Positions 3,207-27,880 of a stretch of 32,000 bases of DNA are shown here, piece after piece. The stretch comes from Corynebacterium glutamicum ATCC 13032. Its GTDB lineage: Bacteria > Actinomycetota > Actinomycetes > Mycobacteriales > Mycobacteriaceae. The notes under the pieces were generated by a model. It was not told where the DNA came from, searched no databases, and saw nothing but the letters and a program-made list of their open reading frames with translations. Location: the NCBI RefSeq assembly GCF_000011325.1, contig NC_003450.3, forward strand, positions 2,970,001-3,002,000, read 5' to 3'. Position numbers and translations under genes: made by a program. Each line of letters begins with the position of its first letter. Within the stretch, counting starts at the first letter, position 1.

Positions 3207-3227
3207 CAGGCTTCCTTACTTGTTATA

Positions 3228-3797: not shown

Positions 3798-3961
3798 GCA
3801 GACAATAATGTCGCTTTAAGAACAATTTTATCTACTATGAGAACATTTTTAGAGAAAGTAGCCCGCTCTGTGGGAGTAGCATTGGATTGCACAAAACGGA
3901 TCGGGTCACGGGGCTCGGAAGACTACGATGATTCACCCACCTACCGAAAGCGCTTACTGCG

Positions 3962-4386: not shown

Positions 4387-4410
4387 GAGCGTAGAAATCA
4401 TTAACTAGCT

Positions 4411-4451
4411 GCATCGTTCAATATTAGTGAACGTTCAATATTGATGAACAC
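4411..4451. repeat. 41-bp direct repeat, copy 1 (two tandem 17-bp units GTTCAATATTAGTGAAC / GTTCAATATTGATGAAC); candidate operator
   Basis: gcatcgttcaatattagtgaacgttcaatattgatgaacac matches 6376-6416 at 37/41 positions. Each 17-bp unit is a GTTCA-N7-TGAAC inverted repeat. The copy ends 17 nt before the ATG at 4468 and sits just upstream of a -10-like TACACT (4455-4460). Confidence 0.85.
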
Positions 4452-4467
4452 ACGCTACACTTAGATT

Positions 4468-5595
4468 ATGCCAATAGTAACTTTTGAGGACTGGAATGAA
4501 TCGTTCCTTCAGACGGGACTTCCCTTTGAACTCCTTGGACAGGTTCAAGGCAAGACTTTAGAAGACGAACCCTTCGCCGATATGGGCGAAGCCAAGTTAA
4601 GGATTAAAAATTTTGAATCGGTGAATGCGTCAAAAATAGTGCATGCGCTATATTTCCCCAACTTGAAATATCTCCGATTTACACTGCCACAGTCTGTGGA
4701 CAAGTTCTTTATCTTATCCCCAAGTATTCCCCCTCGAGTTGCTGAACTTTTGCGCGAACAAGGGTTTATGTTCGCCGACCAACGAGGCAATGGTTTCGCA
4801 TCATGGCCTGGGGTCCATATCGATGTCCGCGGTAAAACAAGCACCGATTCATCAAAGAAAATCAAAAGACGAACACCAGATCGTCGAACTGCATCACTTT
4901 TCACTCCTCGCAGAGCTCAAGTATCCGGAGCATTGCTTGCACAACCAGCCATATTAAGGTCACCAATCCGCGAGATTGCAGACTCAGCGTCCGTCTCTGT
5001 TGGCACCGCGATCCAAACTCTTGAATTACTCACCGAAGCTGGCTACTTGCGCAAAATAGAAAGCGGATACCGACTCATGAAAGGCGATGCACTGCTTGAT
5101 TCATGGGCGCATGCCTATCCGACTGGGCTCGGTGTAAGCCAACAAACTTTCAGAGGCAATGGAGACCTTAATCGCTTTAAAAACATTGAACCTCTTGGGT
5201 GGATCAGTGGCGAACAAGCTGTCCCAAAACTTATCAGTGGCGGAAATACTGCACATATTTATGTCAACGATGACAGCGACGACAAGGCCACTAACAAAAT
5301 CATTCAACAAGGACGACTTCGGAGAGATGATACCGAGGGCCAGGTATTAGTTCGACGAGCATTTTGGCGGCAATCAAAAAAGCATAATGAAAGCTACCAT
5401 AAAAGAAATCTATCGCTAGCTTTTCCAACCCCATTTAACATGTGGCCGATCGCTCCATTACCAGTAATCTATGCAGATTTACTGTCCGTTGGGGATCCGC
5501 GCCTATCGGAAGTTGCCTACATTATAAAAACTCAGATTCAGGAATACACAGACCATGATGAATTCACCGAACGCGGACATTATTTTAGTAGTTAA
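4468..5595 (+). CDS. Hypothetical protein with central winged-helix DNA-binding segment; candidate AbiEi-like antitoxin/regulator
   Basis: 375-aa ORF in AT-rich DNA. A wHTH-like segment (IREIADSASVSVGTAIQTLELLTEAGYLRKIESGYRL) is present. The ORF overlaps the downstream nucleotidyltransferase gene and is preceded by tandem palindromes. The ORF itself is well supported; the AbiEi assignment is inference from size, wHTH and partner gene. Confidence 0.45.
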   Translation: MPIVTFEDWNESFLQTGLPFELLGQVQGKTLEDEPFADMGEAKLRIKNFESVNASKIVHALYFPNLKYLRFTLPQSVDKFFILSPSIPPRVAELLREQGFMFADQRGNGFASWPGVHIDVRGKTSTDSSKKIKRRTPDRRTASLFTPRRAQVSGALLAQPAILRSPIREIADSASVSVGTAIQTLELLTEAGYLRKIESGYRLMKGDALLDSWAHAYPTGLGVSQQTFRGNGDLNRFKNIEPLGWISGEQAVPKLISGGNTAHIYVNDDSDDKATNKIIQQGRLRRDDTEGQVLVRRAFWRQSKKHNESYHKRNLSLAFPTPFNMWPIAPLPVIYADLLSVGDPRLSEVAYIIKTQIQEYTDHDEFTERGHYFSS

Positions 5596-6364
5596 CAAGC
5601 TGTCCAAGTTTATTGATATCGAAAATATTATGCTCGTTGGAGCACGATGTAGAGACATTCACCAGCAAAAATATCGCGATCAAACAGCGGGTAGAAGAAC
5701 TAAGGATGTTGACTTCGCTTTAGCTTTAGAAAGCTGGGACGACTTCAATCTATTAAAGCAACAATTCTCACCGACTGGTAACGCATGGCAAGGAATCACC
5801 ATTGGAAATATTCCAGTAGATCTCGTGCCATTCGGAAATATTGAAAACCCACCCGGTGAAGTCTTGTCCAGAAAAGGTCATCTACTTAATGTCGCTGGGT
5901 TCAAGGAAGTATTCGAGCAAGCTGAGCTATATCCCCTAAATGATGCGATAGACATTAAGTTGTCTACAGTTCCCGGACTTACTGCGCTAAAGCTACATGC
6001 ATGGCTCGACCGTAAAGAAAATAACATCAAAGATGCAAGCGATCTAGCATTAATCTTGTCGTGGTACGAAGAGGATGTAGAAACTTTATGGAATCGCTAT
6101 TTTGCCCTGGAAAATCAAGGATACATAGGTGAACCAGAGGCAATGGCAGCTGAATTACTAGGACTTGACACTGGAAGAATACTCGGCCACAAGGAAACTC
6201 AAGCCCTCCTTGATCGATTTAATGAACAGTCTCCTCCTGAGCTAAACCAATTTGCTGAATCACTTGAAGCCCCTCCTGAACACAGTCACCCATTAGAACG
6301 GCGTCGTATCCAGGTCGAGGCACTGTTAGGTGGACTTAGAGATTCCCTCGGTTACGATGAATAG
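5555..6364 (+). CDS. Nucleotidyltransferase-fold protein; candidate AbiEii-like (DUF1814) toxin
   Basis: 269-aa ORF. It has a pol-beta-type NTase signature (MLVGARCRD ... TKDVDFALAL, i.e. G-[SA] followed by a DxD-like acidic pair). It overlaps the upstream gene by 41 nt, though the true start may be further downstream. Its length is typical of AbiEii/AbiGii family proteins. Confidence 0.5.
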   Translation: MMNSPNADIILVVNKLSKFIDIENIMLVGARCRDIHQQKYRDQTAGRRTKDVDFALALESWDDFNLLKQQFSPTGNAWQGITIGNIPVDLVPFGNIENPPGEVLSRKGHLLNVAGFKEVFEQAELYPLNDAIDIKLSTVPGLTALKLHAWLDRKENNIKDASDLALILSWYEEDVETLWNRYFALENQGYIGEPEAMAAELLGLDTGRILGHKETQALLDRFNEQSPPELNQFAESLEAPPEHSHPLERRRIQVEALLGGLRDSLGYDE

Positions 6365-6375
6365 CTTCCAATCCC

Positions 6376-6416
6376 GCATTGTTCAATATTACTGAACGTT
6401 CAACATTAATGAACAC
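6376..6416. repeat. 41-bp direct repeat, copy 2 (GTTCAATATTACTGAAC / GTTCAACATTAATGAAC)
   Basis: gcattgttcaatattactgaacgttcaacattaatgaacac begins 12 nt after the stop codon at 6362-6364. It matches copy 1 at 37/41 positions. Confidence 0.85.
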
Positions 6417-6524
6417 GGCTGTTTAATTTTCTTTTATCCATCAGTCATTTTAAGCTTCCGCCCCTCGGCAAGGTGACGAAAATTTTGTTATTCTCTACGG
6501 TTTGAGGGCTTCTCGCGGGAAGGA

Positions 6525-7778
6525 TTGGGTGAGGAGGGAGGCGTCGAAAAGCAAGAAACGCCTGACACGCGTAGCCGTGGCTGCGCACCTTTTACCTTGA
6601 TTAGGTGCACAATAGGGAGTGTGACACCTCGCCCTGTTTCTTCTGTTGCGCGACTCGTTGAGGATAACGCGCAAGATTTTCTTCGCGCCGTTCAGGCGAA
6701 ACTTTTAACGCTCGCGCCACAGGCTCGTGGGCATTTTCCCACTGCGGATGATGCGACTCATATCAGCATCGCCGAAATGGTGAGTGCGCTGTTGGAAGGC
6801 ACTGGTGAGGAAGGGAAAGTAGACGACAAAACACTGGAGTTCTTTAAAGAAGCGGCGTTAGATGCGCGTCGATTTGGCCTGACCCCAGAAATGCACAGCG
6901 CTTTGGGTGAGGCCGTGCGCAGCGAACTATTGTCATTATGCGAGGATCTTCCCTTTGAAAATGTGCTGTTTGCCGAGCGTGCGATTGCTGCAACCACGGC
7001 TGTTTCCGTCGAGGCGGTTCGTGAAGCTGATGAGGCACACATTCCTGCCTCATATCAGGCAGAAATTGTAGAAGTTGAAAAGCGCAGCCGTAGGTTCACC
7101 GTCGTGCGCATGCAAGCTGAAACGCAACTGCCCTACCTACCGGGACAATATCTTGCAGCAACTGCGGATTTTCTGCCCAACACATGGCGCTACCTGTGCC
7201 CTTCGATCCCCACTAACGAATGGGGGCAGGTGGAGTTTCACATCCAATCAGACGCAGATGATATCGCTGGACTTTTAGCCACCACACGCCTTGGCGATAA
7301 ATGGCGACTTGGCCCCGGTCGTGGAGATTTCGGACAAAGCAAAATTAGTTCCGGCAATGATTTGTTATTTATTGCACATGGAACGGGCCTAGCTCCTCTT
7401 CGCGCTTACATGTTTGAGCTGATGAACCAAGCAGCACCTCCACGTTTGCACTTTTTCGTCGGTGCCGACTACCCCGGTGAGCTGTATGAACTCACCGGCA
7501 TGTGGAATTTTGCTGCAGCCAGCCCATGGCTTTCTGTCGTACCGGTGTCAACGCATGACAAGGATGCGTGGTGGGTTCAAGCCACCGAAGCATCGCAGCC
7601 ACCGAGGGGTTTGCATTTGCATCAAACGGGTTCGATGGCGAAGATCGTCACCGAAGCAGGTGCTTGGGCCGACCGCGACGTGTTAATTGCTGGCCCTGAA
7701 TCGTGGGCTCGGGATGTTCGGCGCGCGATGATTAGGCGTGGAACTCCGGCCCAGCAGATTGAGATTTTAGGGTTCTAG
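6525..7778 (+). CDS. Ferredoxin-NADP reductase-type FAD/NAD(P)-binding oxidoreductase with globin-like N-terminal domain (flavohaemoglobin-like architecture)
   Basis: The C-terminal two thirds carry an FNR-like FAD-binding region (LPGQYLAATADF...WRYLCPS) and an NAD-binding motif LLFIAHGTGLAPLRAY. The N-terminal ~140 aa resemble a globin fold (DFLRAVQAKLLTLAPQARGHFP, FGLTPEMHSALGEAV). The start is uncertain: the ORF-track start at 6525 is TTG, and an in-frame GTG lies at 6621. Confidence 0.65.
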   Translation: MGEEGGVEKQETPDTRSRGCAPFTLIRCTIGSVTPRPVSSVARLVEDNAQDFLRAVQAKLLTLAPQARGHFPTADDATHISIAEMVSALLEGTGEEGKVDDKTLEFFKEAALDARRFGLTPEMHSALGEAVRSELLSLCEDLPFENVLFAERAIAATTAVSVEAVREADEAHIPASYQAEIVEVEKRSRRFTVVRMQAETQLPYLPGQYLAATADFLPNTWRYLCPSIPTNEWGQVEFHIQSDADDIAGLLATTRLGDKWRLGPGRGDFGQSKISSGNDLLFIAHGTGLAPLRAYMFELMNQAAPPRLHFFVGADYPGELYELTGMWNFAAASPWLSVVPVSTHDKDAWWVQATEASQPPRGLHLHQTGSMAKIVTEAGAWADRDVLIAGPESWARDVRRAMIRRGTPAQQIEILGF

Positions 7779-7844
7779 GTTGCCTCACCGGGCTGACCAA
7801 TCAGAAGCGCCGACGTGCCCAACGAGTGATTCCTTAGACAGTGG

Positions 7845-8645
7845 TTAAAGAACAGGCAATGCCTCCCGAATTTTGGCCAAACCGCTGACATCAATATCCG
7901 CGATCAACATTTCTGGCTCATAACCCGCGCTAGCAATTACTTCACCGTGTGGGTTTGTCACCATGGAATGACCAATCCCCGTAGGGCCTTTTCGTTCATC
8001 GCGTAATTCTTCTGGAAGTCGCGCTTGCCCACACGCTACGATCCAGCAGGTGGAATCCAGTGCACGCGCGCGAGGGAGGACTTCCCATTGTTCTAATTTT
8101 CCAGGACCGTCTTGCCACGACGTGGGAACCACAATTATCTGTGCACCGTTGCGGGCGAGGTCTTTGAACTGTTCTGGGAATCGAATATCGTAGCATGTCG
8201 CCACACCAAATTTAATATCGTCGACCTCGAATACAACCAGCTCATCGCCCGGTTTCACAGTGTCGGATTCCCTATAACCGAACGCGTCATATGTGTGAAT
8301 TTTGTTGTATCCCTGATGCAATCCAGCGCCACTAATCAGCACGGTGTTGTTGACGCGCGAGATCGTTTTTTCACCGCGCTGCACGGTGTCAGCAGGGGTG
8401 AACATGCCCGCAACGATGACAACGTCCAGCTCATCGGCTAATTTTCGTACCGCGGTGGAGAATTCGCCATCGAGCTCCTCCGCCTGAGTATCAAGCCTTC
8501 CCGTACCAAAGCTTTGCGAAGTCGCCTCCGGAAACACCAACACCCGAGCCCCCTGTTCCGCAGCTTTTTCAGCAGCATCACGCAGCAGGGCGAAGTTGTC
8601 CATCTTATCGGAATTCGTCGAGATCTGAAGCAAGGCAATACGCAT
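7845..8645 (-). CDS. Carbon-nitrogen hydrolase family protein (nitrilase/amidase superfamily)
   Basis: 266-aa ORF with the Glu-Lys-Cys catalytic triad context: VLVFPEATS, GYNKIHTYD and FGVATCYDIRFPE. Confidence 0.8.
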   Translation of the reverse strand: MRIALLQISTNSDKMDNFALLRDAAEKAAEQGARVLVFPEATSQSFGTGRLDTQAEELDGEFSTAVRKLADELDVVIVAGMFTPADTVQRGEKTISRVNNTVLISGAGLHQGYNKIHTYDAFGYRESDTVKPGDELVVFEVDDIKFGVATCYDIRFPEQFKDLARNGAQIIVVPTSWQDGPGKLEQWEVLPRARALDSTCWIVACGQARLPEELRDERKGPTGIGHSMVTNPHGEVIASAGYEPEMLIADIDVSGLAKIREALPVL

Positions 8646-8737
8646 AATCCACAGCCTAGGCGCTTTGAGGCAAGTTATACACAGGTTCGCGTGATCACTT
8701 CTTGCCCAGCATCGTAAAAACCACTTGAATCAGCAGC

Positions 8738-8983
8738 ATGTACCTACAAACCGACCTCCCCAATCACCTCATCCACCGCGACATCACCTATCCCAGCCCC
8801 ACACTTAACTGCACGCCCAGCCACACGGCCACCGCGCTGAGCAGCGCGAATCAACACTGGCGTCTATTGCTTTTCGACGCCAACCTCCATCTCAACAATC
8901 ATCTTTCCGATATGCGCACTGTCAGCGAGCAGATGCTCAACATAGACGTCGATCTTGGCCACACACTGAATAAGTTGCACTGA
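8738..8983 (+). CDS. Small hypothetical protein, possibly translationally coupled to the downstream hydrolase
   Basis: 81-aa ORF whose TGA stop overlaps the next ATG (TGATG at 8981-8985). No recognisable motif; support comes only from the coupling geometry. Confidence 0.3.
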   Translation: MYLQTDLPNHLIHRDITYPSPTLNCTPSHTATALSSANQHWRLLLFDANLHLNNHLSDMRTVSEQMLNIDVDLGHTLNKLH

Positions 8984-10119
8984 TGCTCGCCCTCAAAAGT
9001 TCAGAATTAGAAGGCATAGCCACATCACTCACCGCCGTGGCGGGTGCGCTCCACGAATCAAACACTGACCGGTTGCAGTCCTGGCAGCAGCTCGAAACGA
9101 TGACCTCTGCCAGCTCCCTTATCCAGGGCTTTATCAAGCTTGTCGATTACAACCGACCCACAGTGAATATCGTGGAACAAATGCACAAAACCGCATCCAC
9201 GCTTTTCAACACCGCTGATTTCCTACGCACTTTGGAAGGCTATGTTGATGTACTGGAAAAACAAGCCGATAAATCTATAACGCTCACCGTCATGCTTCGA
9301 TATATTGCCAGCTTGAGTAGCCTTTTAGACCTCATGTGTGCACGCGAGATCAACGCGTTGTGCACAGCGATTACTCCAGAACCATTGAAGCATCTGGGCG
9401 ATTTTGGCACTCTACCCGCCTCAGCAATCCACGAGTTTCATTTGGTGAATGCCCCACCAGAAATCCGTGCCTTAGCCGAAGCCCATCCCGATATGCAGAT
9501 CCTAGAAGCCGGCGATGGTTCATTGGTAGCATCGTTTGGGGATATTGATAGGGCTACGACCGTGACCACCATCGTGGCAGGTGTGGGTTCCTCCAACCCA
9601 GAAGGGTGGAATACATATGTTGACCGTGCCCGCACAGTATCTGCTTCCACCGGTTCCGCAACGGTGTTGTGGCTGGGATATCAAGCACCCGCTTCGATTC
9701 CTGCTGCGGTATCCGGCGCGGCAGCGAATCGCGCTGCCGCGGATCTCCAGAGGTTTCAAGCGGCACTACAGTCCCGCAATCCCCACCAAAGAAAAGTAGT
9801 GATGGGCTACAGCTACGGTTCCACAGTGGTGGGAAAAGCTGCGTCTTCCGGCGAGCTCAGTGCCGATGCGTTGGTATTGGTTGGCAGTCCCGGCGCGGGT
9901 GTCTCGCACTCTTCCCAGCTTGGCGCACCTGTGTATGCGGTAACAGGGTCTGCTGATCCCATCGGTTTTGCCGGCACCCAATATGACGGCATCCACGGCA
10001 CTGATCCCACCGCTGCCCTATTCGGTGCAACAGTGTGGGATTCGCCCTCAACGCATTCCGGTTATTGGAATGACCAGGAGTTCCTGGGCAATGTGGCGGA
10101 GGTGGTTCGCGGCAAATAG
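8983..10119 (+). CDS. Alpha/beta hydrolase (DUF1023-like) with helical N-terminal domain
   Basis: 378-aa ORF. The C-terminal half has a nucleophile-elbow GxSxG motif (VVMGYSYGSTVVG), and later VLVGSPGAG and a His near the C-terminus (STHSGYW). The N-terminal ~190 aa look helical with no motif I recognise. Confidence 0.6.
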   Translation: MLALKSSELEGIATSLTAVAGALHESNTDRLQSWQQLETMTSASSLIQGFIKLVDYNRPTVNIVEQMHKTASTLFNTADFLRTLEGYVDVLEKQADKSITLTVMLRYIASLSSLLDLMCAREINALCTAITPEPLKHLGDFGTLPASAIHEFHLVNAPPEIRALAEAHPDMQILEAGDGSLVASFGDIDRATTVTTIVAGVGSSNPEGWNTYVDRARTVSASTGSATVLWLGYQAPASIPAAVSGAAANRAAADLQRFQAALQSRNPHQRKVVMGYSYGSTVVGKAASSGELSADALVLVGSPGAGVSHSSQLGAPVYAVTGSADPIGFAGTQYDGIHGTDPTAALFGATVWDSPSTHSGYWNDQEFLGNVAEVVRGK

Positions 10120-10161: not shown

Positions 10162-10178
10162 AGGACTTAACGCTTAGA

Positions 10179-11699
10179 TCAGAACAGTCCGGTTGGGTTT
10201 GGATCGTAGGAGACCAACAGGTTCTTGGTCTGCTGGTAGTGGTTCAGCATCATGAGGTGGTTCTCACGGCCGATGCCGGACTCCTTGTATCCACCGAAAG
10301 CGGAGTGCGCTGGGTAGTTGTGGTACTGGTTGACCCAAACTCGACCAGCCTGGATTGCGCGACCTGCACGATAAATGGTGTTTTGGTCACGGCTCCAGAC
10401 ACCAGCGCCGAGGCCGTAGTTGGTGTCGTTTGCAATACGGATGGCCTCATCGAAGTCGCTGAAGGTAGCAACAGAAAGGACTGGTCCGAAGATTTCCTCG
10501 CGGAAGATCCTCATGTCGTTGGTGCCGCGGAAAACGGTTGGCTCAATGTAGTAACCGTTCTCCATGCCATCAACCTTGTTGACCTTGCCACCAGTGAGGG
10601 TTTGAGCGCCTTCTTCTGGGCCGATCTTCAGGTAGGAGGAGATCTTGTCCATCTGCTCCTGGGACGCCTGAGCACCCATCATGGTTTCAGTATCAAGTGG
10701 GTTACCCAGCTTGATGTTCTGAACTCGCTTCACGCCAAGCTCGAGGAATTCATCAGCGATGGACTCATGAACAAGTGCACGGGAAGGACAGGTACAAACT
10801 TCACCCTGATTGAGGGCGAACATCGCGAAGCCTTCAACTGCCTTCTCTGCGAAGGCGTCATCCTGTGACAGAACATCGGAGAAGAAGATGGATGGGGACT
10901 TACCGCCGAGCTCCAGGGTGACAGGAATGATCTTGTCGGATGCAGCGCGGTTGATCAGCTTGCCGACCTCGGTGGAACCGGTGAAAGCAATCTTGCCAAT
11001 CCGATTAGAGCCGGACAGTGCAGCGCCTGCTTCACCGCCGAGTCCGTTGACGATGTTGAGGACGCCCTCTGGGATGAGATCGCCGATGATGTTAATCAGA
11101 TACAAAATGGATGCTGGGGTCTGCTCAGCTGGCTTCATGACGATCGCGTTACCTGCAGCAAGTGCCGGTGCGAGCTTCCAGGTAGCCATGAGGATTGGGA
11201 AGTTCCAAGGAATGATCTGACCAACAACACCGATTGGCTCGTTGAAGTGGTAAGCAACAGTGTTGTGGTCGATCTGTGAGGAACGATCTTCCTGAGCACG
11301 GATCGCGCCAGCAAAGTAGCGGAAGTGGTCGATTGCCAGTGGGATATCTGCAGCAAGAGTCTCACGGACTGCCTTGCCGTTCTCCCAGGTTTCTGCAACT
11401 GCGATTTCTTCCAGGTGCTCTTCCATGCGGTCCGCAATGCGGTGCAGGATCAGAGCACGTTCAGCGACAGAAGTCTTGCCCCACGCATCAGCGGCTGCAT
11501 GTGCAGCATCCAGTGCAAGCTCCACGTCCGCTGCGGTGCCACGTGCGACCTCACAGAAAACTTCACCAGTGACAGGTGAAATGTTCTCAAGGTACTGGCC
11601 CTCTACCGGTGGAACCCACTTGCCACCAATGTAGTTCTCGTAGCGCTTTTCATAGTTAACGATCGAGCCTTCGGTTCCTGGATTTGCGTAGACAGTCAT
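10179..11699 (-). CDS. ald: NAD-dependent aldehyde dehydrogenase
   Basis: ALDH motifs TLELGGKSP and [14 protein letters not shown] (catalytic Cys). I place the start at the ATG at 11699 ([11 protein letters not shown]...), which is preceded by AAAGGAG. The ORF-track N-terminal extension to 11819 has no RBS and looks non-coding. Confidence 0.9.
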
Positions 11700-11950
11700 T
11701 GGGTCTCCTTTGGGCCACCTCCACCTGAGCACTACCTGTGCGTCAGGTGACACTTGGTCAACGATTGTGACAACGCGCACATTCGCACGCTTAGCAGCCA
11801 CCATATTCACGAAAATCAATCCGCGCTAGAACCCCCGTTAAATTCACCCCCTTTTCTCAAAATTCTCGCAGCTCAACGCCGAAAGCCTTTCAAAAGTTAT
11901 TACCCCTGTTCGGGTGGTTATACATGTATCTAATTGGCGAAAGCACGAAA

Positions 11951-18183: not shown

Positions 18184-18214
18184 CCCGATGCCGCCAGGCA
18201 TCGGGTTTTTGTTA
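18184..18214 (+). terminator. Rho-independent terminator of the permease gene
   Basis: CCCGATGCC-gcca-GGCATCGGG followed by tttttgtt: a perfect 9-bp GC-rich stem plus T-tract, 16 nt after the stop at 18168. Confidence 0.8.
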
Positions 18215-18772
18215 TTTAAACTCCTTCACAGCCTCCGCCAACTGTCGTGCGCCCGCATCGACCGCATCAAACCACGACCCCGAAGCCTCCTCATCCGCGC
18301 TGTCACTAACCTGCTTCAGCAGCGTAATCGGAACACCAAAATGCTTTGCGACGCCCACCAGCGCCGCGCCCTCCATATCGCAGAGGGAGGCCCGGGTGGC
18401 CAGGTGGTTGCGGGTTTCTGAATCTGCAATAAATGAGTTTCCTGTTGCCAAACTCGCTACTGGGAAGTGCCCACTCGTGGCCAAAGTTGAACCATTTGAG
18501 CATGGCTTTCCTGTCATTTCAGCGATTAACTCGCTACTGAAATCATGCTGCAGAACGTATTCGATCTCGTATACGCCAGCCAATCCATCCACCAAAGCTC
18601 CCGCCGTACCAATATTGACAATTCGGGCAGGAAGCACCTCCCGAGTAGCCAACTCCTTAGTCAAAATCATCGTTGCTGCGGTCGTTCCGATGCCAGTCAC
18701 CAGCAAGTCGATTCCATCTGGAAGATACACCGCTTCCTCAGTTGTGGCGGATACAAAAAGAGTCTCAGTCAT
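18212..18772 (-). CDS. Nucleosidase of the PNP/UDP-1 family (MTA/SAH-nucleosidase-like)
   Basis: Family motifs VTGIGTTAAT, NIGTAGAL and CDMEGAALVGVAKHFGVP. I place the start at the ATG at 18772 (MTETLFVSATTEE); the ORF-track extension to 18847 would run into the upstream gene. Confidence 0.7.
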   Translation of the reverse strand: MTETLFVSATTEEAVYLPDGIDLLVTGIGTTAATMILTKELATREVLPARIVNIGTAGALVDGLAGVYEIEYVLQHDFSSELIAEMTGKPCSNGSTLATSGHFPVASLATGNSFIADSETRNHLATRASLCDMEGAALVGVAKHFGVPITLLKQVSDSADEEASGSWFDAVDAGARQLAEAVKEFK

Positions 18773-18843: not shown

Positions 18844-19950
18844 TCACCCACGAATTACTTTCTCGATTTCTTCAACAGCAACATCGAGGCGGATGCGTTC
18901 TTGTTCAATGCGGAGCTCACCGTCTGTAATGAGTAGGTCAAGTGCGTCAGATTCAAAATCATGAAGGTTGTCAAAGCTCTCTGCCTTGAATTCTCGGTCG
19001 GCAACGCCAAGGTAGCGCCAGCGGGAGACGGTTTCAGAGTTCATCAGCACGGATTCGGTGTGAGGAACATGGCTGCGGACGCCGTCGAGAATTTTGAAAC
19101 CGTCCAGGTCAAGGTCACCCCAGTACAGCAACCGACCATTAGAAAAGTAGGGTCCTCGAACAATGTCTACTGCACGGTAGCCCGCACCCCAAGCAATTGT
19201 TACGCCCGGCCAAGTGGGTAAAGCGAGAAATGAATCGAGGTTTTCCACCATCAGAATTACTTGCGGTTCTTGTAATTCACACAGGTTGGAAAGCGGTACT
19301 TCAATGTCTGTGAGCCCAGCGGGAGCATCTACGGAATGGAAGCGGAGCCGGACGCGAGCTTCGGCGTCACCAAGTCCAAGATCGGCACGACCAGGTTCAC
19401 CACGTTTGTCGGCCACTAACGTTTCAATGAGTACGCGGTGGTTTTCGAGCCATTTGGTATGCACGCCTTCAACTGCGACGGCGCGTTTCAGCAGGCCAGA
19501 GTTAGGGTGTTTCAAAAACCAATCCACAACTAACACTGCCTTAGAGAGATCATCGTTAGACAGCGAACGCCACAGCGACACATGTTTCGCCACCACCTCC
19601 GCTGTAAAACCAGACAGCTGTGAAAACCTCTCGTGAAGTGAAGACCATTCATCCTCTACCTGCGCAAACACAACTAATTCCTCAGTCGTGTTCAACGTCA
19701 GCCTAACGGGTACTTCAGTTTTACCTAAGCCCACAGGAGACCAGTTTCGAATGGCATATTCCACATCATCACGCCCCTCCCATTGGCGGATAAATTCCCT
19801 CGTGGCATCAATATCGGCGGCGGCTTTAGCTGCCGTCGGTGGGTGCAGGGGCAGGCTGAGGCCTGCAAATTCGCCGAGGAGCAGCTCGCTTAAGTGCGCG
19901 TGGAAGTATTTTTTGCTGCGGTGGAGGGCGTCGTCGATAAACAATGGCAT
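18844..19950 (-). CDS. mksG: JetD/MksG-like Toprim-domain subunit (putative nuclease) of the Wadjet/MksBEFG-type system
   Basis: The C-terminal domain has Toprim-like acidic motifs: VILMVENLDSF (Glu) and LLYWGDLDLDGFKIL (DxDxD). The N-terminal domain resembles DUF3322. I prefer the ATG at 19950 (MPLFIDDALH), giving the junction TAAcATG with the upstream ATPase gene. The ORF-track start at 20046 would overlap that gene by 95 nt. Confidence 0.85.
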   Translation of the reverse strand: MPLFIDDALHRSKKYFHAHLSELLLGEFAGLSLPLHPPTAAKAAADIDATREFIRQWEGRDDVEYAIRNWSPVGLGKTEVPVRLTLNTTEELVVFAQVEDEWSSLHERFSQLSGFTAEVVAKHVSLWRSLSNDDLSKAVLVVDWFLKHPNSGLLKRAVAVEGVHTKWLENHRVLIETLVADKRGEPGRADLGLGDAEARVRLRFHSVDAPAGLTDIEVPLSNLCELQEPQVILMVENLDSFLALPTWPGVTIAWGAGYRAVDIVRGPYFSNGRLLYWGDLDLDGFKILDGVRSHVPHTESVLMNSETVSRWRYLGVADREFKAESFDNLHDFESDALDLLITDGELRIEQERIRLDVAVEEIEKVIRG

Positions 19951-19951
19951 G

Positions 19952-22900
19952 TTATTTCTCGATCCTAGAGAAACTGGAATTGCCCTGAATTGCGCCCTGG
20001 GCGTTTGGTTTTTCGGTGTAGCTGACCACGATGGTGGAGCCGACATAATCGCCGAGGGTTTGGATAAGTTTCAGCGGGGTCGCGAGCACCATGTGGAAGC
20101 CGAAGCTGTGGAAGACGTTCATGGTTTGGCGGGTGAAGGCGGGGTCGGCGCGGTCGAAGGCTTCGTCCAGAATGACGGTGGCGTAGGTGGGATAATGGGC
20201 GCCGGGTTCGGCTAGCTGGTAGCGCAAGGCAGCGGCGAGGCAGAAAAACACCAGCTTCTGGGCTTGTCCGCCTGAAAGTGATGCGGAGTCGACGTAGGTG
20301 TTGACGGTTGCGCCGTCGGAATCGCGCTCGAGGCCGATGAAGCGAACGTGGCGGCGGGTGTCTAGAACGGTGTTGCGCCAGCGGGCGTCGGCGGAGTCGT
20401 GGGAGGCGAGTTTGGAAATGATTTCAGCGATCAGCGCATAACGGGCGAAGGCTTGTTTCTCGGTACTGGTTCCCAGGTCACCGCTGGTAGCGGCATCAAG
20501 TTTCTGCTGGAATTCCCTCACAATCGGACCACTTTGATCACGGATGTCGATGTGCAGGAAGCGACCTTCGTTGAATTCCGACTGCGCCAAGGAGGCGTTG
20601 ATCGGCTCGATGCGCTCCTCGATTTCCCGGCGCGCATCACGTAGACGCCGCGAGATTTGGCCGAGGTTTCGGGTGGACATCTCGTTCATGAGCCCTAGGA
20701 ATTTGGCCGTGAATTCTGCCAAACGATCGCTGCGAAGCTCGCCGAGGCGGTTGATGGCCTCACCAACAAACTCAGGTTCGGCTTGTAAGTCAGCGCGGTT
20801 CGCAGGCCACGTTTCAATATAGCTGCGCAAAATGCCAACAATTTGGTTTTCACAACGTCGAAGTTCTGCCTCATTGGCATCGATTTGTTTGTCCAGATCC
20901 TCGCGCAGCGCAATGGTCTGCTCATCCACGTTGGCGGCGTGAACCCGGCGGGTGTTGGCAAGAAATAGTTTCTCCACTTCCCGCGCGATTTCTTCAGAAA
21001 CCTCCGCAACCGGCAGGCTTTCGAGCCGTTTCAATTCAGTTTCGGCGCGTTTCAGGTTCATCGACGCCACGGTTTCCTCACTCTGAGCTGCGACAAGCAA
21101 GTCAGAAACCCTCGCGAGCGTCTGCTTCGCCGCCTCATGCCGCGCGGAAAGCTCGGTGGCCTCTGGAGTGTTGTTCAGCTCTTCCAGCAATCGGTCCAGC
21201 TCAGCAATCGCCGCGTCGGCTGATTCCACATCAATCTGAGCCCACGACACTTTCAAAATTTCTTGCGAAGCTTGATACTGCCGTTCAAGTTCCCGCAGCT
21301 CAGCGCGGTTTGCAGCAATGCGATTATCAGCTGCCTGCACAACTGCTTTGCCAGCTTTCACGGTTTCCCGAAGCGTTTCCACCTTGGCATCATTGGTGGA
21401 ACCCAAACGGTATGTGGAACGATCCCCCAGCTTTCGGCGATCATCTTTTTCCCAACGCGTCGTCGGATCGCCTGTCTGCTGCGCAAATTTTCGCACACCC
21501 AAAATGGTCACGCCCTGATCGCGTGGCCCCAGCGCCGACAATTCCTCAGGAGTGCGCACGCACCGAATATTAAAACGCTTGCCTAATTCTTGATTTACCC
21601 AATCGCGAAACGGCGACTCCACAACATCAACTTTTCGGATCAGGGAATCCGCCGGAAAACGCGAGGTTTTGTACTCCCCCGTTGTCACCACGCCGTTGAA
21701 TTTCAGCAGCGCTGCCAAATGTTTGGCATTTACCCAATCCCGAACCCGTGGCAACAACCCATGAGGAACCAACATTTCCGCAGCAAAACCACCCAAAATG
21801 CGCTGCACAACGGGTTCCCATTCCGCATTATTCGGATCAATCAGCTCACCGGCAAAGGGCATATCCCGCGGGCTCACGCCCAAATCCTGACACAAATTTT
21901 CCCGCACCTGCAGCAAACGGTACTCAATATTACTGCTGCCTTTACTCAAAGAAGACAGCTCTTGATCCGCCGCTTTGAACTCATCAACCGCACGGGTTCG
22001 GTCCTCTACATTCCTCTGACCTGCAGATTCAAGCGCTTCCCTCGCCGCCGGATACTCATCCACGGTCAGCCGCGCAGCGTTGTTGAGCTCCAAAAGCTCC
22101 TCCGCCGATTCCGGCGCCGCACCGCCCAGCCCCTTAACCAATGCGTCCAGACCAGCGCGCGCAGTGCTAATTGTTCTTCGCTTATCGACGGCCCCCTCCC
22201 TCTTCGCACTCAAAATTCCATGCTGCGCTCCCACAATTTGTTTGACGTTGTCGTGCGCGAGGGTTTCCATTTCGCGGGCACGATCTGTCTCAATTTTGGC
22301 GGACTCCACCTTCGACTTCGCCTGCGTTTGCTCGACAGTAAATTGTCGAACCAGCGTTTCTTGCTCTTCCTTCTTAATGCGATTCCCGACAGTCGGCAGC
22401 GCCTTCTTCAGTGCATTGGCATGATCTTTGGACTGTTGCGCTTTCTCTCGCCGATTCTTCAGCTGCACCAAAGGATCCAGGGTGTGGATCTGCCGTTTAA
22501 TATCTTCGACCTGCTCATAAGCACCTTCAAGGTCTTGGAATTGTTCCACGGCAGTTTTGGCAATGCTGAACGTATCCGGTTCCACCAGCATGTAATCCCG
22601 AAATAGATCATCCAAGCTTTGAAGATCTTTCGCCGACTGCGCGCGGTGCAACAACAGCAAAGCTTCCTCACTGGAGATCCCCAAACGGCTTCTAAACCTG
22701 CCGGAGAATACAGAATGCTGCTCGCTAAAGATGGCTTCCTTGAAAGCAGCTCTGATCTGGCGTTTATCGATGCCCTCTTTCAGGAAATCCAGCAGCGCAT
22801 TGATGTCTTGATCAACGGGAAACACACCATAATATGAAGAAATATCGGAGGTTAAATTGTGTCCCGATTTCAGATAGAAAATAGCCACCAAGGTGTGCTC

Positions 22901-23287
22901 GACGCCTTCACCGTTGGAATAAGTCAATCCAACCAGCGAATAGGTTGCGCGGGGACGTAGGTACGTGGAGACAATCTGATCCTGCAGCGGATCCTCCTGC
23001 GCACGCCAAGCGCCACGGATATAGGTAACCAAACTGCGTCCCTTATTCCGCGGAGTATTAGCCTGTGCGGCAGAGTTAAACCTCAGCTTTCCTTGCGGAA
23101 GCAATACCGCCGTGATCGCATCAATCAGCGTGGATTTTCCTGATCCCGAACCACCGGTAACTAAGATTCCTTCCCTGGTCACAGGAATGTCCACCGTTCC
23201 GTGGAAGGTTCCCCAGTTGATCAACTGAATCCGAGAAAGACGGAACTGACCTGGGTGGATAGGATCTAAAGCTTGTTCGCTGGTCAC
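19952..23287 (-). CDS. mksB: JetC/MksB-like SMC-family ABC ATPase (1111 aa)
   Basis: N-terminal Walker A GGSGSGKST (nt 23129-23155). The middle, about 800 aa, is rich in E/R/K/L/A/Q and looks coiled-coil. The C-terminal head carries the ABC signature LSGGQAQKL and Walker B ATVILDEAFDRAD. Its start overlaps the upstream stop by 4 nt (ATGA). Confidence 0.9.
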   Translation of the reverse strand: MTSEQALDPIHPGQFRLSRIQLINWGTFHGTVDIPVTREGILVTGGSGSGKSTLIDAITAVLLPQGKLRFNSAAQANTPRNKGRSLVTYIRGAWRAQEDPLQDQIVSTYLRPRATYSLVGLTYSNGEGVEHTLVAIFYLKSGHNLTSDISSYYGVFPVDQDINALLDFLKEGIDKRQIRAAFKEAIFSEQHSVFSGRFRSRLGISSEEALLLLHRAQSAKDLQSLDDLFRDYMLVEPDTFSIAKTAVEQFQDLEGAYEQVEDIKRQIHTLDPLVQLKNRREKAQQSKDHANALKKALPTVGNRIKKEEQETLVRQFTVEQTQAKSKVESAKIETDRAREMETLAHDNVKQIVGAQHGILSAKREGAVDKRRTISTARAGLDALVKGLGGAAPESAEELLELNNAARLTVDEYPAAREALESAGQRNVEDRTRAVDEFKAADQELSSLSKGSSNIEYRLLQVRENLCQDLGVSPRDMPFAGELIDPNNAEWEPVVQRILGGFAAEMLVPHGLLPRVRDWVNAKHLAALLKFNGVVTTGEYKTSRFPADSLIRKVDVVESPFRDWVNQELGKRFNIRCVRTPEELSALGPRDQGVTILGVRKFAQQTGDPTTRWEKDDRRKLGDRSTYRLGSTNDAKVETLRETVKAGKAVVQAADNRIAANRAELRELERQYQASQEILKVSWAQIDVESADAAIAELDRLLEELNNTPEATELSARHEAAKQTLARVSDLLVAAQSEETVASMNLKRAETELKRLESLPVAEVSEEIAREVEKLFLANTRRVHAANVDEQTIALREDLDKQIDANEAELRRCENQIVGILRSYIETWPANRADLQAEPEFVGEAINRLGELRSDRLAEFTAKFLGLMNEMSTRNLGQISRRLRDARREIEERIEPINASLAQSEFNEGRFLHIDIRDQSGPIVREFQQKLDAATSGDLGTSTEKQAFARYALIAEIISKLASHDSADARWRNTVLDTRRHVRFIGLERDSDGATVNTYVDSASLSGGQAQKLVFFCLAAALRYQLAEPGAHYPTYATVILDEAFDRADPAFTRQTMNVFHSFGFHMVLATPLKLIQTLGDYVGSTIVVSYTEKPNAQGAIQGNSSFSRIEK

Positions 23288-23922
23288 TTCTGTTCCTCTT
23301 CATTTCCATCATGGGCTGCTTTGTTAAATTTTTCGTACTCAGCGCGCACACCTGCCACAGTGTCGGCATCAAAAATCTGGCGCAGTGCTGGTGAGACCTC
23401 AAAACGTTCAGGTGTCTCTGTCTTTTTAGCTAATGAATAATCCACGATGCGCCTAAATGCAGCGTCGAATCGCTTAGCTAGTTTGGCTTCATCTCGCTCT
23501 TCATCAACGCGGTAGAGCAACACTTGTTCGCGGATTTCTTCACGATCCACAATGACTCGTTCCCCCGGTGGCGCCATGGTGAGTTCTTGGCGCAGAATCA
23601 AAATGATCAACGTATCAAAATGCGACAGCGTCTCCGTGCGCAGCACTTTGGGCATCGCTTCAGTTTTGTTATTTCCAACCAATACTTCTTGTCTACCATT
23701 GGCAGGCCGAGTAAATGCAACACCCGCATCCTCATCAAGAACCAACTCGAGGAACAAATTGTTAAGCACAGCATTGAGCGCATCTTGATCTGTGGTGATA
23801 GCCCGCCACACTTCAACATGCTGCAAAGCATTCACCATGGGACCTTTGAGTAATTGCACCAGAGCTTTCCTGGACCCAAAAGTCAGCGTTCCAGTGTCGC
23901 CTTCCCACAGCTGATCATTCAT
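23284..23922 (-). CDS. mksE: JetB/MksE-like small acidic subunit (DUF4194-like, MukE/KITE analogue)
   Basis: 212-aa acidic ORF. The segment LVQLLKGPMVNA...VWRAITTDQDALNAVLNNLFLELVLDEDAGVAFTRP matches my memory of the DUF4194 core (LLKGP..., LeLvlDE..G.Af). It has 4-nt ATGA overlaps with both neighbouring genes. Confidence 0.8.
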   Translation of the reverse strand: MNDQLWEGDTGTLTFGSRKALVQLLKGPMVNALQHVEVWRAITTDQDALNAVLNNLFLELVLDEDAGVAFTRPANGRQEVLVGNNKTEAMPKVLRTETLSHFDTLIILILRQELTMAPPGERVIVDREEIREQVLLYRVDEERDEAKLAKRFDAAFRRIVDYSLAKKTETPERFEVSPALRQIFDADTVAGVRAEYEKFNKAAHDGNEEEQK

Positions 23923-25406
23923 TTATCCATCTCGCTTTCTGCCAAATCTTCACTGTTTAAACCCCTGATGAACTGCCATCCTGTAATCCGCCGGCGGTGT
24001 GTGGCATCATCACTTTCCCACTCCACTATTTGCGCGCGACCTGTGGGAACACCATCACGCATCGCCAGGTATAACAATCCAACAATGCTGGCGAGACCTT
24101 GCGTTGCCGGGAAATGTTCTAGTACCTCGGTGATCGTGGCGTGCGATTGCTCGGCAAGAACTAAAGAAACAGCCTCTTCCAATTCCTCAAAATCAATCTC
24201 GCTTGCCCGAATTTGTTCCATCAAGACTTCAGTGTCTAGTTCTTGTTCTTCAACTGGCTCAGGCAAATCTTCGACGCGTTCTTCACCTGGGTTCTTCAGT
24301 TTCAACCCCGCAATCGAGCGAACATCCATACCAATGCGCACGAGTGGTGTGTCCATGTGATTGAGTGAGGTCACTTCACCAGCCTCGGCGGCCTTAGCAG
24401 CGGCACTGCGGGTATCGCGAAGCAACTGAATCATGCGTCGGCTCTCTGCGAACTCCTCGGTAGTGACATAGTGACGCAAACTTCGAGCCAGCCCTGTCAT
24501 TTCCCCGTTGACCTCGAAGCTGGCATCCTCCATATCCCGGAAAATTCGGTACAGCCCTGTCCTTAATTTTGAATCCAGATCAATAGCCTCATCGCGTCCC
24601 AGAACTTCTCTGATCCATCGATCAATCAGACTTGAGCGTTCCCGATCGAGCAAAACATCAAAGAAACTATTGAAGCTGCGCCCCGCATCGGAATCCCCAA
24701 TCAGATCAACTCCCCTGAAGATCTCTTCCAAAACATCACCACGGGAATCTTCAGGATCAAGCAACTGCCTGCGCAGCTTCCGGTTCAGATCGCTCAGCTC
24801 ATGCCTTACCCTGGCGAAATCTGCAGGAATAGATGCTGCTAGATCCAAAATATCTGCTACCCGATCACCAATCTGCACGGTGGTGAGGACTTCAAATTCA
24901 CCAGCGTGGACCGCTTCAATCTGGCGTTCAATCCTGTCGCGTTCACGCTCTAACTCAGCTAAACGTTTCGCTGTGCTGGGGTCCGATTCCAACGCCAAAG
25001 TCTGCAACGCCTGCGTCAACGATTCAATTCGAGACGCCGAAATGCTTCGATGCGGGTTATCCCACCGCTGCACCGAATCCAGCACCGCCAACAGCTCTTC
25101 ACTCGGTTCCACGGTCTCACCAGTCTGCGAACTACCCGGACGACGCACAAACCACCGGGACTTCACCCAATCACTCACATAATCCGACGGGCTTTTCGGC
25201 AGCTCAAATCCTTCTTCACGCAGCACCCGAAAATCATCGCTGAGCAGCTGATACAGCTCTGAGGCCGGCTTAGCGATAGCCCCCTGCGGAAAATACTGCG
25301 CTACCACGGCGAGCACCACCGGAAAGTTGTCACTGCGCAACAAAGACAGCTCCAGGGATTCCTGCCTAAATCGCTTAAACCCAAGCGCGTGCGATACAAC
25401 GGTCAT
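23919..25406 (-). CDS. mksF: JetA/MksF-like subunit (DUF3375-like, kleisin analogue)
   Basis: 495-aa ORF and first gene of the operon. The N-terminal LSLLRSDNFPVVLAVVAQYF and the overall size and position fit DUF3375/JetA. This is an operon-context call strengthened by its three recognisable partners. Confidence 0.8.
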   Translation of the reverse strand: MTVVSHALGFKRFRQESLELSLLRSDNFPVVLAVVAQYFPQGAIAKPASELYQLLSDDFRVLREEGFELPKSPSDYVSDWVKSRWFVRRPGSSQTGETVEPSEELLAVLDSVQRWDNPHRSISASRIESLTQALQTLALESDPSTAKRLAELERERDRIERQIEAVHAGEFEVLTTVQIGDRVADILDLAASIPADFARVRHELSDLNRKLRRQLLDPEDSRGDVLEEIFRGVDLIGDSDAGRSFNSFFDVLLDRERSSLIDRWIREVLGRDEAIDLDSKLRTGLYRIFRDMEDASFEVNGEMTGLARSLRHYVTTEEFAESRRMIQLLRDTRSAAAKAAEAGEVTSLNHMDTPLVRIGMDVRSIAGLKLKNPGEERVEDLPEPVEEQELDTEVLMEQIRASEIDFEELEEAVSLVLAEQSHATITEVLEHFPATQGLASIVGLLYLAMRDGVPTGRAQIVEWESDDATHRRRITGWQFIRGLNSEDLAESEMDK

Positions 25407-25585
25407 GCCAATTGACTATTCCAGAAGGGGTGGACACGTGTCGTACATTCCTGTTCGAATCCGGTCACACTCCCCCATCACCGCACCAACTTCAAACAAA
25501 GGTCATGCCTTAAGCAGCAAAAAGCCACGCCCCTCCTTTAACTGGCTATGAACCAGCTATATATAAGGAGAAGCGTGACTTTTCA

Positions 25586-25639
25586 ATGATGAGAATGATG
25601 AGAATGATGAGAACGACCAGAACGATGAGAATGTCGAGA
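25586..25639. repeat. Tandem 9-bp repeat, six units (3 perfect ATGATGAGA + 3 degenerate)
   Basis: atgatgaga atgatgaga atgatgaga acgaccaga acgatgaga atgtcgaga. It lies in the spacer between the adhA 3' end (25745) and the mksF start (25406). Confidence 0.9.
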
Positions 25640-25640
25640 A

Positions 25641-25675
25641 CTACAAAAGCGACGAAAGCTCAGCCAAAGTTCGTC
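25641..25675 (-). terminator. Weak candidate terminator downstream of adhA
   Basis: The minus strand reads GACGAA-ctttggctgagct-TTCGTC followed by gcttttg. The stem is only 6 bp and the loop is long, so support is weak. Confidence 0.25.
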
Positions 25676-27268: not shown

Positions 27269-27880
27269 GTGTCGATTTTCAAATGGAATGAATATATGCT
27301 GCCGGTGCTTAAGGCACTGCCCCAAGATCAGATTATGGTCCGTCGGGATTTGATTGAGCTCGTCGCCTAGTCAATAGGAATCACCGAAGAGGATCGAAAG
27401 GAATTCATCAGCTCAGGTCAGCTCACTTATGTCAGCCAAATTAACTGGGCAATCACTTATCTTCACAGAGCACTATGCTTAAACCGTCCGCAACGTGCTC
27501 ACTACGCGATCAATAATCTGGGCAAAAAACTCCAAGCTCAGCACCCGGATGAAATTTCGCAAAGTGACCTTGCCAAGTTCGCCCAAGATCATGGAATAAA
27601 GTATCCAAGCGGTGTTGCTCAAAGAAAGCTGAATAATGAAGAACGGTCCGTCGACAAGCAAGAAGCCGAGCTGACGCCGACCGAGCAAATGGAAACCGGC
27701 CTTGTGCGGCTGTGCTCTAGGATTTCAGCCGATTTGTTGGAGCGATTGCACAACAACGCTCCGGTGTTATTTGAGCTGGGGTTGCCCGCAAGTGGTGGAC
27801 ACATAATTAAGCTACTTGTTAGTTTCCTACAGGTGAAACAGGGCGATCATGATCCTGCTCAAACTGAACAGGAGAGATAA
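27269..27880 (+). pseudogene. mrr: Decayed Mrr-type restriction endonuclease gene (Mrr_N winged helix retained, in-frame TAG, catalytic domain missing)
   Basis: A single reading frame gives (V)SIFKWNEYMLPVLKALPQDQIMVRRDLIELVA-*-SIGITEEDRKEFISSGQLTYVSQINWAITYLHRALCLNRPQRAHYAINNLGKKL... This matches the Mrr N-terminal pattern (MLPxLkal...L...va..lglteEer.e.lpSG.q....nrv.WA.tYL.ka.l..rp.rg.y.iT..G). An in-frame TAG lies at 27368-27370. The frame then stays open to 27880 but ends at about 200 codons, with no recognisable D-(D/E)xK nuclease domain. Confidence 0.6.

Follow-up and report, generated by a model that had tools for sequence, protein, structure and literature searches.

A chromosomal operon of Corynebacterium glutamicum ATCC 13032 corresponds to mksFEBG, the published plasmid-restricting type I Wadjet (JetABCD) system

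The MksFEBG complex of Corynebacterium glutamicum is known from genetic and biochemical work on plasmid maintenance. Deletion of mksB increases the copy number of plasmids with a pNG2 replicon 10- to 60-fold (PMC7083940), and strains lacking mksG or mksF show the same plasmid phenotype, with a raised copy number of pBHK18 (PMC10123090). Growth, ParB/oriC foci and Hi-C maps are unchanged upon mksB deletion, the phenotypes of smc or parB deletions are not aggravated, and no chromosomal loading sites were found by ChIP-seq (PMC7083940). MksG is a dimeric Toprim nuclease dependent on Mn2+ or Mg2+, which introduces nicks into plasmid DNA, linearises it and degrades it; its activity is impaired by the exchanges E236A, D279A and Y258A, and in vitro it cuts DNA on its own, with neither MksBEF nor ATP, albeit at high protein concentration (PMC10123090). 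MksB binds DNA irrespective of whether it is linear or circular, and its ATPase activity is boosted by MksF, MksE and plasmid DNA and is lost in an E1042Q variant (PMC10123090). MksF recruits MksG and interacts with MksG, MksB and DivIVA, on which localization of the complex to the cell pole depends (PMC7083940, PMC10123090). For the type I homologues of Escherichia coli and Pseudomonas aeruginosa, published work describes ATP-dependent cutting of circular but not linear DNA with a size limit, in which complete loop extrusion is followed by stalling and cleavage.

The window analysed here, a stretch of 32,000 nucleotides from C. glutamicum ATCC 13032, carries this operon. Window positions 8844-29950 (21,107 bp) are identical to BX927147.1, the ATCC 13032 genome, and the MksG encoded there is identical at 368 of 368 residues to the solved C. 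glutamicum protein (PDB 8b7f). The order of the genes, the presence of adhA next door, an MksB of 1111 aa and the numbering of E1042, E236, Y258 and D279 all agree with the published descriptions (PMC7083940, PMC10123090). We assign the locus, with a probability of about 0.97, to the chromosomal mksFEBG operon (cg3106-cg3103), a plasmid-restricting type I Wadjet (JetABCD) system. A first-pass annotation made from the sequence alone had already named Wadjet/MksBEFG, an identification borne out by the identity with 8b7f and by type I PADLOC models as the best match for each protein. Since deletion strains, purified proteins, mutants and a crystal structure from this operon already exist, the call is correct but not new: locus, function, nuclease structure and catalytic residues are all published for exactly this operon. 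The proposal that the system is not needed for chromosome condensation agrees with the unchanged Hi-C maps of the mksB deletion (PMC7083940). Likewise, most of the experiments suggested at that stage can be found in the literature, where deletion leads to a rise in plasmid copy number (PMC7083940), the Toprim mutations E236A and D279A impair the nuclease and MksB E1042Q has no ATPase activity (PMC10123090). The operon accounts for the low-copy behaviour of pNG2-type shuttle vectors in C. glutamicum, an industrial host.

All four genes lie on the minus strand, and the four co-directional reading frames described in the first-pass annotation, with products of 495, 212 and 1111 aa and a fourth of 368 aa, are present. 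The first, mksF/jetA (cg3106; 23919-25406), encodes the kleisin-like subunit (495 aa) through which MksG is joined to the MksBE core. It is followed by mksE/jetB (cg3105; 23284-23922), encoding an acidic KITE-like subunit of 212 aa (pI 4.95), by mksB/jetC (cg3104; 19952-23287), which starts with GTG and encodes the SMC-like ABC ATPase motor of 1111 aa, and by mksG/jetD (cg3103; 18844-19950), encoding the Toprim (Topo VIA-like) nuclease. The MksG length of 368 aa follows from taking the ATG within TAAcATG as the start codon, and this is also the form that was crystallised. Inspection of the junctions showed an ATGA with a 4-nt overlap between mksF and mksE, a GTGA between mksE and mksB, containing the GTG start codon of mksB, and a TAAcATG between mksB and mksG, the latter beginning one base past the mksB stop. 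The junctions had initially been given as ATGA, ATGA and TAAcATG, of which the first and third are as described and the second is a minor error. Stop and start codons that overlap or abut in this way are compatible with coupled expression. The order A-B-C-D, contiguous and co-directional, also occurs in loci of Corynebacterium, Agromyces and Glutamicibacter.

Profile searches with Pfam and PADLOC agreed for all four proteins with the families predicted from the letters (DUF3375, DUF4194, split ABC heads and DUF3322/Toprim), and the Pfam and PADLOC type I Jet matches are beyond chance. MksF matched DUF3375 (PF11855; E 6.7e-137 over residues 12-472) and, over its full length, JetA1 as its best PADLOC model (E 7.7e-179); among solved structures it matched the JetA chains 8as8_E and 8q72_E (E ~1e-24), the JetA alignment spanning residues 22-460. 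MksE covered the whole DUF4194 profile (PF13835; positions 1-165, E 6.1e-40) and was best matched by JetB1 (E 4e-81); its PDB matches were weak (E 0.045-0.22), and all of them were JetB chains. MksB matched AAA_29 (E 4.7e-25) and SbcC_Walker_B (E 3.1e-24) in Pfam, JetC1 in PADLOC (E = 0 over residues 3-1096) and the JetC chain 8as8_A in the PDB (E 8e-60 over residues 14-1090). For MksG, Pfam returned DUF3322 (PF11795; E 3.9e-41) together with JetD_C (PF09983; E 2e-48), and JetD1 was the best PADLOC model (E 1.6e-93). The solved structures matching MksF, MksB and MksG were exclusively JetA, JetC and JetD/MksG chains.

The catalytic motifs are in place as well. The ATPase motifs claimed for MksB were located intact: the Walker A motif GGSGSGKST at residues 45-53 with K51, the signature LSGGQ at 1004 and the Walker B motif VILDEAFDRAD at 1038 with E1042. 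MksG carries the Toprim motif MVENLDS at 234, containing E236, and GDLDLDG at 278, containing D279 and D281. Upon alignment these acidic residues held up, E236 and D279/D281 matching the VEN and D.D of P. aeruginosa JetD; E236 and D279 are the metal ligands (D281 is also there), and Y258 and E349/E351 complete the set of MksG residues. The first reading was thus accurate down to the catalytic residues, as K51, E236 and D279/D281 are those mutated or modelled in the literature.

If the complex works like its type I homologues in E. coli and P. aeruginosa, MksB2-MksF-MksE2 motors would pair up as a dimer and extrude DNA from both sides. Only a small circle could be extruded entirely, whereupon the motor would stall, and the remaining bent DNA would be clamped and then cut by the MksG dimer. 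The chromosome, being far larger, would never be extruded completely and would be spared. Three observations do not fit this canonical JetABCD model: cleavage by MksG free of motor and ATP, binding of MksB to linear as well as circular DNA, and plasmid selectivity. The last of these is seen in the copy numbers of pBHK18 and pWK0, low-copy plasmids derived from pNG2, which are lowered by the system, whereas those of pJC1 and pEK0, which stem from C. glutamicum cryptic plasmids, are not, all being circles of 3.5-6 kb (PMC7083940, PMC10123090). As circles of similar size are treated differently, measuring size alone is insufficient to explain specificity. The discrimination between replicons, the nuclease acting alone in vitro and the parking of the complex at the pole by DivIVA suggest that the C. 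glutamicum system might not purely measure a circle by full extrusion. Either an extra layer of recognition, based for instance on how a plasmid replicates, where it lies or its copy number, or an anti-Wadjet function on native replicons of the pBL1 and pHM1519 types might then be involved, a possibility we put forward tentatively and at rather long odds.

The same selectivity is an argument for reading the operon as a modulator of plasmid copy number or maintenance rather than an all-or-none defence, one that, at the pole, senses certain replicons or states of a plasmid, trims their number and tolerates plasmids of the native type. Such a modulator would account for a response limited to the two pNG2 derivatives, and the restricted plasmids are nonetheless maintained in wild type (PMC7083940, PMC10123090). 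However, both the parts and the catalytic residues are those of a type I Wadjet, homologous systems abolish transformation whatever the sequence, and tolerance of native replicons could be explained equally well by high copy number or by plasmid counter-defence. We consider this reading unlikely compared with plasmid restriction by a type I Wadjet. The operon accounts for the low-copy behaviour of pNG2-type shuttle vectors in C. glutamicum, an industrial host.

A second alternative is a condensin of the MukBEF/MksBEF type serving chromosome organisation or segregation, in which MksG would be an accessory, topoisomerase-like factor. MukBEF of E. coli and MksBEF of P. aeruginosa share the plan of SMC-like ATPase, kleisin and KITE subunit with the operon, and MksE has a second, weaker Pfam match to the MksE family ('Condensin complex protein MksE', E 4.4e-9). 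This reading is refuted by the published Hi-C, genetics and ChIP-seq of the mksB deletion (PMC7083940). Moreover, whereas these condensins lack a nuclease subunit and have the chromosome as their substrate, the C. glutamicum system has no chromosome-folding role, and a JetD/MksG gene, the mark of Wadjet and not of MksBEF condensins, is present where a condensin operon would consist of three genes and be free of a nuclease. We regard a condensin as extremely improbable.

Transcription of the type I Wadjet operon can be placed with published RNA-seq data. The start site of cg3106 was mapped to genome position 2968711, equal to the start codon with a 5'-UTR of 0 (PMC3890552 supplement), which corresponds to window position 25406, the A of the mksF start codon; the promoter region including this site spans 25406-25466 (minus strand). 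With transcription starting on this A, the mksF mRNA is leaderless, and a search for a Shine-Dalgarno-like purine run before the ATG found none. A scan for the sigma-70 consensus was uninformative: it gave no promoter in front of mksF, and shuffled sequence contained more sites. RNA-seq operon calls list cg3106-05-04 and cg3103-02 as separate units (PMC3890552), splitting the four genes, so that we infer a single four-gene transcript from the junctions. Upstream, a hairpin with a U-run lies downstream of adhA (25515-25585, minus strand; dG -42.5 kcal/mol, z -6.5), and none of 200 shuffled sequences folded as well. It is probably the adhA terminator and delimits the mks transcription unit on the upstream side; a terminator of cg3107 was predicted at window 25524-25579, yet 'no significant termination' was recorded there (PMC3890552 Table S9).

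On the other side of the operon, a co-directional nucleosidase gene, cg3102 (18212-18772, minus strand; 186 aa), lies downstream, 71 nt past mksG, with a terminator beyond it at 18184-18205. We considered, and rejected, a fifth translationally coupled gene, a 211-aa form of this nucleosidase that would overlap the mksG stop by GTGA, because the longer product matches NCBIfam NF004168 (nucleosidase, E 3.3e-87) from residue 24 onwards, the RNA-seq data shift the start to window 18772 and give the gene a start site of its own, and it does not directly follow jetD in other genomes. In Agromyces, Glutamicibacter and C. occultum jetD is not followed by the nucleosidase gene, and in C. suranareeae another gene lies between the two. 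The same RNA-seq study also joined cg3102 in an operon with cg3103 (PMC3890552). We treat cg3102 as context and not as a Wadjet component.

The surroundings had been described as a core-gene neighbourhood with no obvious mobile element. We found no border of a mobile element, which supports the second half of this statement, and a mobile island around the operon was rejected, no mobile element being recognisable. Searches around the operon found no tRNA genes and no Rfam families; direct and inverted repeats in its flanks were limited to short matches at chance level, and the GC content of the operon (0.532) is that of the window (0.533). The neighbourhood does not, however, consist of core genes throughout: 1.9 kb upstream of the operon there is a decayed Mrr restriction gene, an AbiE pair is found 12.5 kb beyond mksG, and the flanks of the operon vary among Corynebacterium species. 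These two neighbours in the same window, together with the name 'Wadjet anti-phage system protein' that some databases give to JetD homologues, might suggest an anti-phage system, a reading to which we give almost no credence, as the functional data, here and in the type I homologues, all come from circular plasmids and linear DNA is left uncut.

Comparison with described systems places the operon among type I Wadjets. JetABCD of E. coli GF4-3 (PDB 8as8, 8bfn, 8q72, 9qxr and others) and of P. aeruginosa PA14 (PDB 8dk1-3, 7til), both type I, are built from these four families, encoded in the same order, and cryo-EM structures are available for homologous JetABC. MksG has low similarity to the two JetD structures (E 1e-10 and 2e-9), with conservation of the VEN glutamate and the YWGD.D motif. 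It differs from JetD in a candidate catalytic tyrosine, Tyr258, which is absent from JetD, as well as in its motor- and ATP-independent cleavage in vitro, its open-dimer crystal and its tether to the pole via DivIVA (PMC10123090). A protein search with MksG returned many Corynebacterium homologues (36-80% identity), and a pattern-based genome scan, of low sensitivity, returned one close relative and distant ones at ~30% identity. EptABCD of Mycobacterium smegmatis belongs, by its description in the literature, to the same family and has the same operon order (PMC10123090). With C. glutamicum MksBEFG itself (Boehm et al. 2020, PMC7083940; Weiss et al. 2023, PMC10123090; 8b7f) there is no sequence difference: it is the same locus, to which our analysis adds minor annotation, namely the GTGA junction, the leaderless start drawn from published RNA-seq and the nearby Mrr remnant.

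The window carries four co-directional open reading frames on its minus strand, as the first-pass annotation had proposed: mksF (cg3106; 25406..23919, 495 aa), mksE (cg3105; 23922..23284, 212 aa), mksB (cg3104; 23287..19952, 1111 aa from a GTG start) and mksG (cg3103; 19950..18844, 368 aa). When the junctions were read from the sequence, the 4-nt ATGA overlap of mksF and mksE and the TAAcATG between mksB and mksG stood, but the 4-nt overlap of mksE and mksB is GTGA and not the ATGA originally called, a small error. The longest possible mksG frame starts at 20046 and spans 400 aa; from the ATG of TAAcATG it spans 368 aa, which is the form that was crystallised. Window 8844-29950 is the exact reverse complement of BX927147.1 2952149-2973255 (21,107 bp), and other strains differ from it by 1-4 bases. 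We take BX927147.1 to be the C. glutamicum ATCC 13032 genome bearing cg locus tags. This identity is confirmed because the RNA-seq supplement puts the cg3106 start at 2968711, corresponding to window 25406, the mksF ATG. Overall, the observation is confirmed.

Profile searches upheld the proposed family of each product. In Pfam, the kleisin-like MksF matched DUF3375 (E 6.7e-137), the KITE-like MksE matched DUF4194 (6.1e-40) and MksE (4.4e-9), the SMC-like MksB matched AAA_29 (4.7e-25) and SbcC_Walker_B (3.1e-24), and the Toprim protein MksG matched DUF3322 (3.9e-41) and JetD_C (2e-48). The type I model was the top match for all four in the PADLOC defence library (MksF, JetA1 7.7e-179; MksE, JetB1 4e-81; MksB, JetC1 E = 0 over residues 3-1096; MksG, JetD1 1.6e-93). 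Among solved structures, MksB matched JetC chains (8e-60, residues 14-1090), MksF matched JetA chains (1e-24) and MksE matched JetB chains alone and weakly (E 0.045-0.22), while MksG is identical at 368/368 residues to 8b7f chain A, deposited as MksG. Every motif quoted earlier is present: MksB has GGSGSGKST at 45-53, with its lysine at 51 as had been predicted, LSGGQ at 1004 and VILDEAFDRAD at 1038, which therefore places the Walker B glutamate at 1042, and MksG has MVENLDS at 234 and GDLDLDG at 278. MksE is acidic (pI 4.95), as claimed. The Toprim acidic residues of MksG survive proper alignment, as its VEN glutamate and YWGD.D motif correspond to those of P. aeruginosa JetD (7til). The JetABCD/MksFEBG interpretation is supported.

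Experiments published earlier already characterise this exact sequence in full. Published work describes a DNA-binding ATPase motor whose kleisin brings in a metal-dependent Toprim nuclease, reducing plasmids in vivo with no chromosomal role (PMC7083940, PMC10123090). Boehm et al. 2020 named cg3103-cg3106 mksGBEF and reported that MksB co-purifies with MksF and MksE, that MksG enters the complex through MksF, and that MksF and MksG contact DivIVA (PMC7083940). Deletion of mksB left growth, oriC foci and Hi-C maps as before, and ChIP-seq revealed no loading sites on the chromosome. In the mksB deletion, pBHK18 and pWK0, both derived from pNG2, rose 60-fold and 10-fold, respectively, and pJC1 and pEK0 showed no rise (PMC7083940). 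Deleting mksG or mksF gave the same plasmid phenotype (Weiss et al. 2023, PMC10123090). MksG dimerizes via its Toprim domain, which superposes on Topo VIA, and it nicks, linearises and degrades DNA with a divalent cation requirement, an activity drastically lowered by E236A, D279A and Y258A (PMC10123090). MksF, MksE and plasmid DNA raise the low basal ATPase of MksB, which is lost in E1042Q, and the complex resides at the cell poles in a DivIVA-dependent manner (PMC10123090). As these two papers report them for mksFEBG, most experiments proposed in the first-pass annotation (deletion, Toprim point mutants, plasmid copy number and chromosome conformation capture) count as done, with the predicted outcomes. 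The ATPase mutant in print is the Walker B change E1042Q; neither a Walker A K51 mutant nor an assay of transformation efficiency appears in PMC7083940 or PMC10123090.

Upstream of mksF, adhA is followed by a strong hairpin with a U-run (25515-25585, minus strand; dG -42.5, z -6.5). PMC3890552 also predicted a terminator there, yet found "no significant termination". The adhA-mksF spacer further holds a tandem 9-nt repeat, AATGATGAG (~5.4 copies, 85% matches), at 25585-25641, which directly precedes the hairpin in the sense of transcription. The mksF mRNA is leaderless, because transcription of cg3106 starts at the A of its ATG (PMC3890552 supplement). In the RNA-seq operon table the genes fall into two primary operons, cg3106-05-04 and cg3103-cg3102 (PMC3890552), so it is the codons that overlap or abut, not transcript data, that argue for one transcript of all four genes. 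Antisense transcripts on the plus strand are listed in mksB (22844-23132, 289 nt), where they face the region of the N-terminal head, and in mksG (~19220-19318), where they face that of the Toprim VEN motif (PMC3890552 Table S7). One table of an MprAB two-component transcriptome lists cg3105 and cg3106 as differentially expressed (+1.04 and -1.14 log2; PMC12113857), opposite signs that are odd for adjacent overlapping genes in one operon.

Downstream, cg3102 encodes a nucleosidase (NF004168, 3.3e-87) for which public records give two minus-strand starts, 18772 and 18847. The 211-aa GTG form, which overlaps the mksG stop, was rejected, as the profile match and published RNA-seq favour the 186-aa ATG form, which has no such overlap and its own leaderless start at 18772 (PMC3890552). 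Judging from jetD loci in other genomes, cg3102 is not a conserved jetD partner. Between cg3101 and cg3102, which converge, a G+C-rich hairpin (18184-18205) may stop transcription arriving from either side.

Other defence genes also occur in the window. A decayed Mrr-family (type IV restriction) gene lies at 27284-27880 (plus strand), beyond adhA and 1.9 kb upstream of mksF, within a 1.7-kb stretch of lower GC (0.468) without an ORF of at least 150 aa. It is interrupted by one in-frame TAG (27368-27370); reading through this codon yields the whole Mrr_N domain (E 2.7e-19, covering positions 1-85 of the 87 in the profile), after which no Mrr catalytic domain was found. Where the GC content of the window is lowest (0.43-0.46 in the genes), overlapping genes within 4411-6416 (plus strand) encode AbiEi_2 (375 aa, PF09952, 2.9e-44) and AbiEii (269 aa, PF08843, 1.7e-6), a predicted type IV toxin-antitoxin or abortive-infection module. 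Two 41-nt direct repeats, 90% identical, bracket the pair (4411-4451 and 6376-6416); in each, two 17-nt near-palindromes, GTTCAATATTAnTGAAC, stand in tandem. The first repeat ends 17 nt ahead of the abiEi start and could be the abiEi operator; the second follows abiEii.

The locus had been placed in a core neighbourhood with no obvious mobile element. The latter part holds, as no tRNA genes, flanking repeats or composition shift were found within the window, and the dnaK-grpE-dnaJ operon forms one flank; the interval nonetheless looks like a defence locus with slow turnover, in agreement with PMC10123090, which suggested horizontal spread. Many Corynebacterium species have an MksG homologue (36-80% identity). 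In C. suranareeae (80%), the operon is on the same dnaK side with different upstream genes, and a 576-aa SLFN_AlbA_2/HATPase_c_4 gene separates mksG from the nucleosidase (10164-11894 of locus L014); the operon of C. occultum (57%) has unrelated flanks. Two Wadjet operons occur in a strain labelled C. callunae TATVAM-FAB64: one is syntenic with that of C. glutamicum (96%; L005), and the other is divergent (MksG 38% identical), its first gene starting 1.2 kb beyond the gene of a large serine recombinase (operon 2518-9110 and recombinase 1-1278 of L016). Together, the distribution of homologues, the flank differences, the second C. callunae operon and the Mrr remnant point towards cassette-like gain and loss.

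Accounts of the type I homologue JetABCD describe cutting of circular but not linear DNA, which needs ATP and the SMC ATPase, with a size limit near 100 kb, and a motor dimer that extrudes loops symmetrically until the whole plasmid is extruded, the motor stalls and the DNA is cut. By analogy, the MksFEBG motor dimer would extrude loops symmetrically, take in an entire plasmid, stall and then cut. The C. glutamicum system deviates from its type I homologues in three respects. In contrast to JetABCD, MksG cleaves DNA in vitro without MksBEF or ATP, at high protein concentration; plasmids of much the same size are told apart by replicon; and MksB binds DNA without preference for topology.
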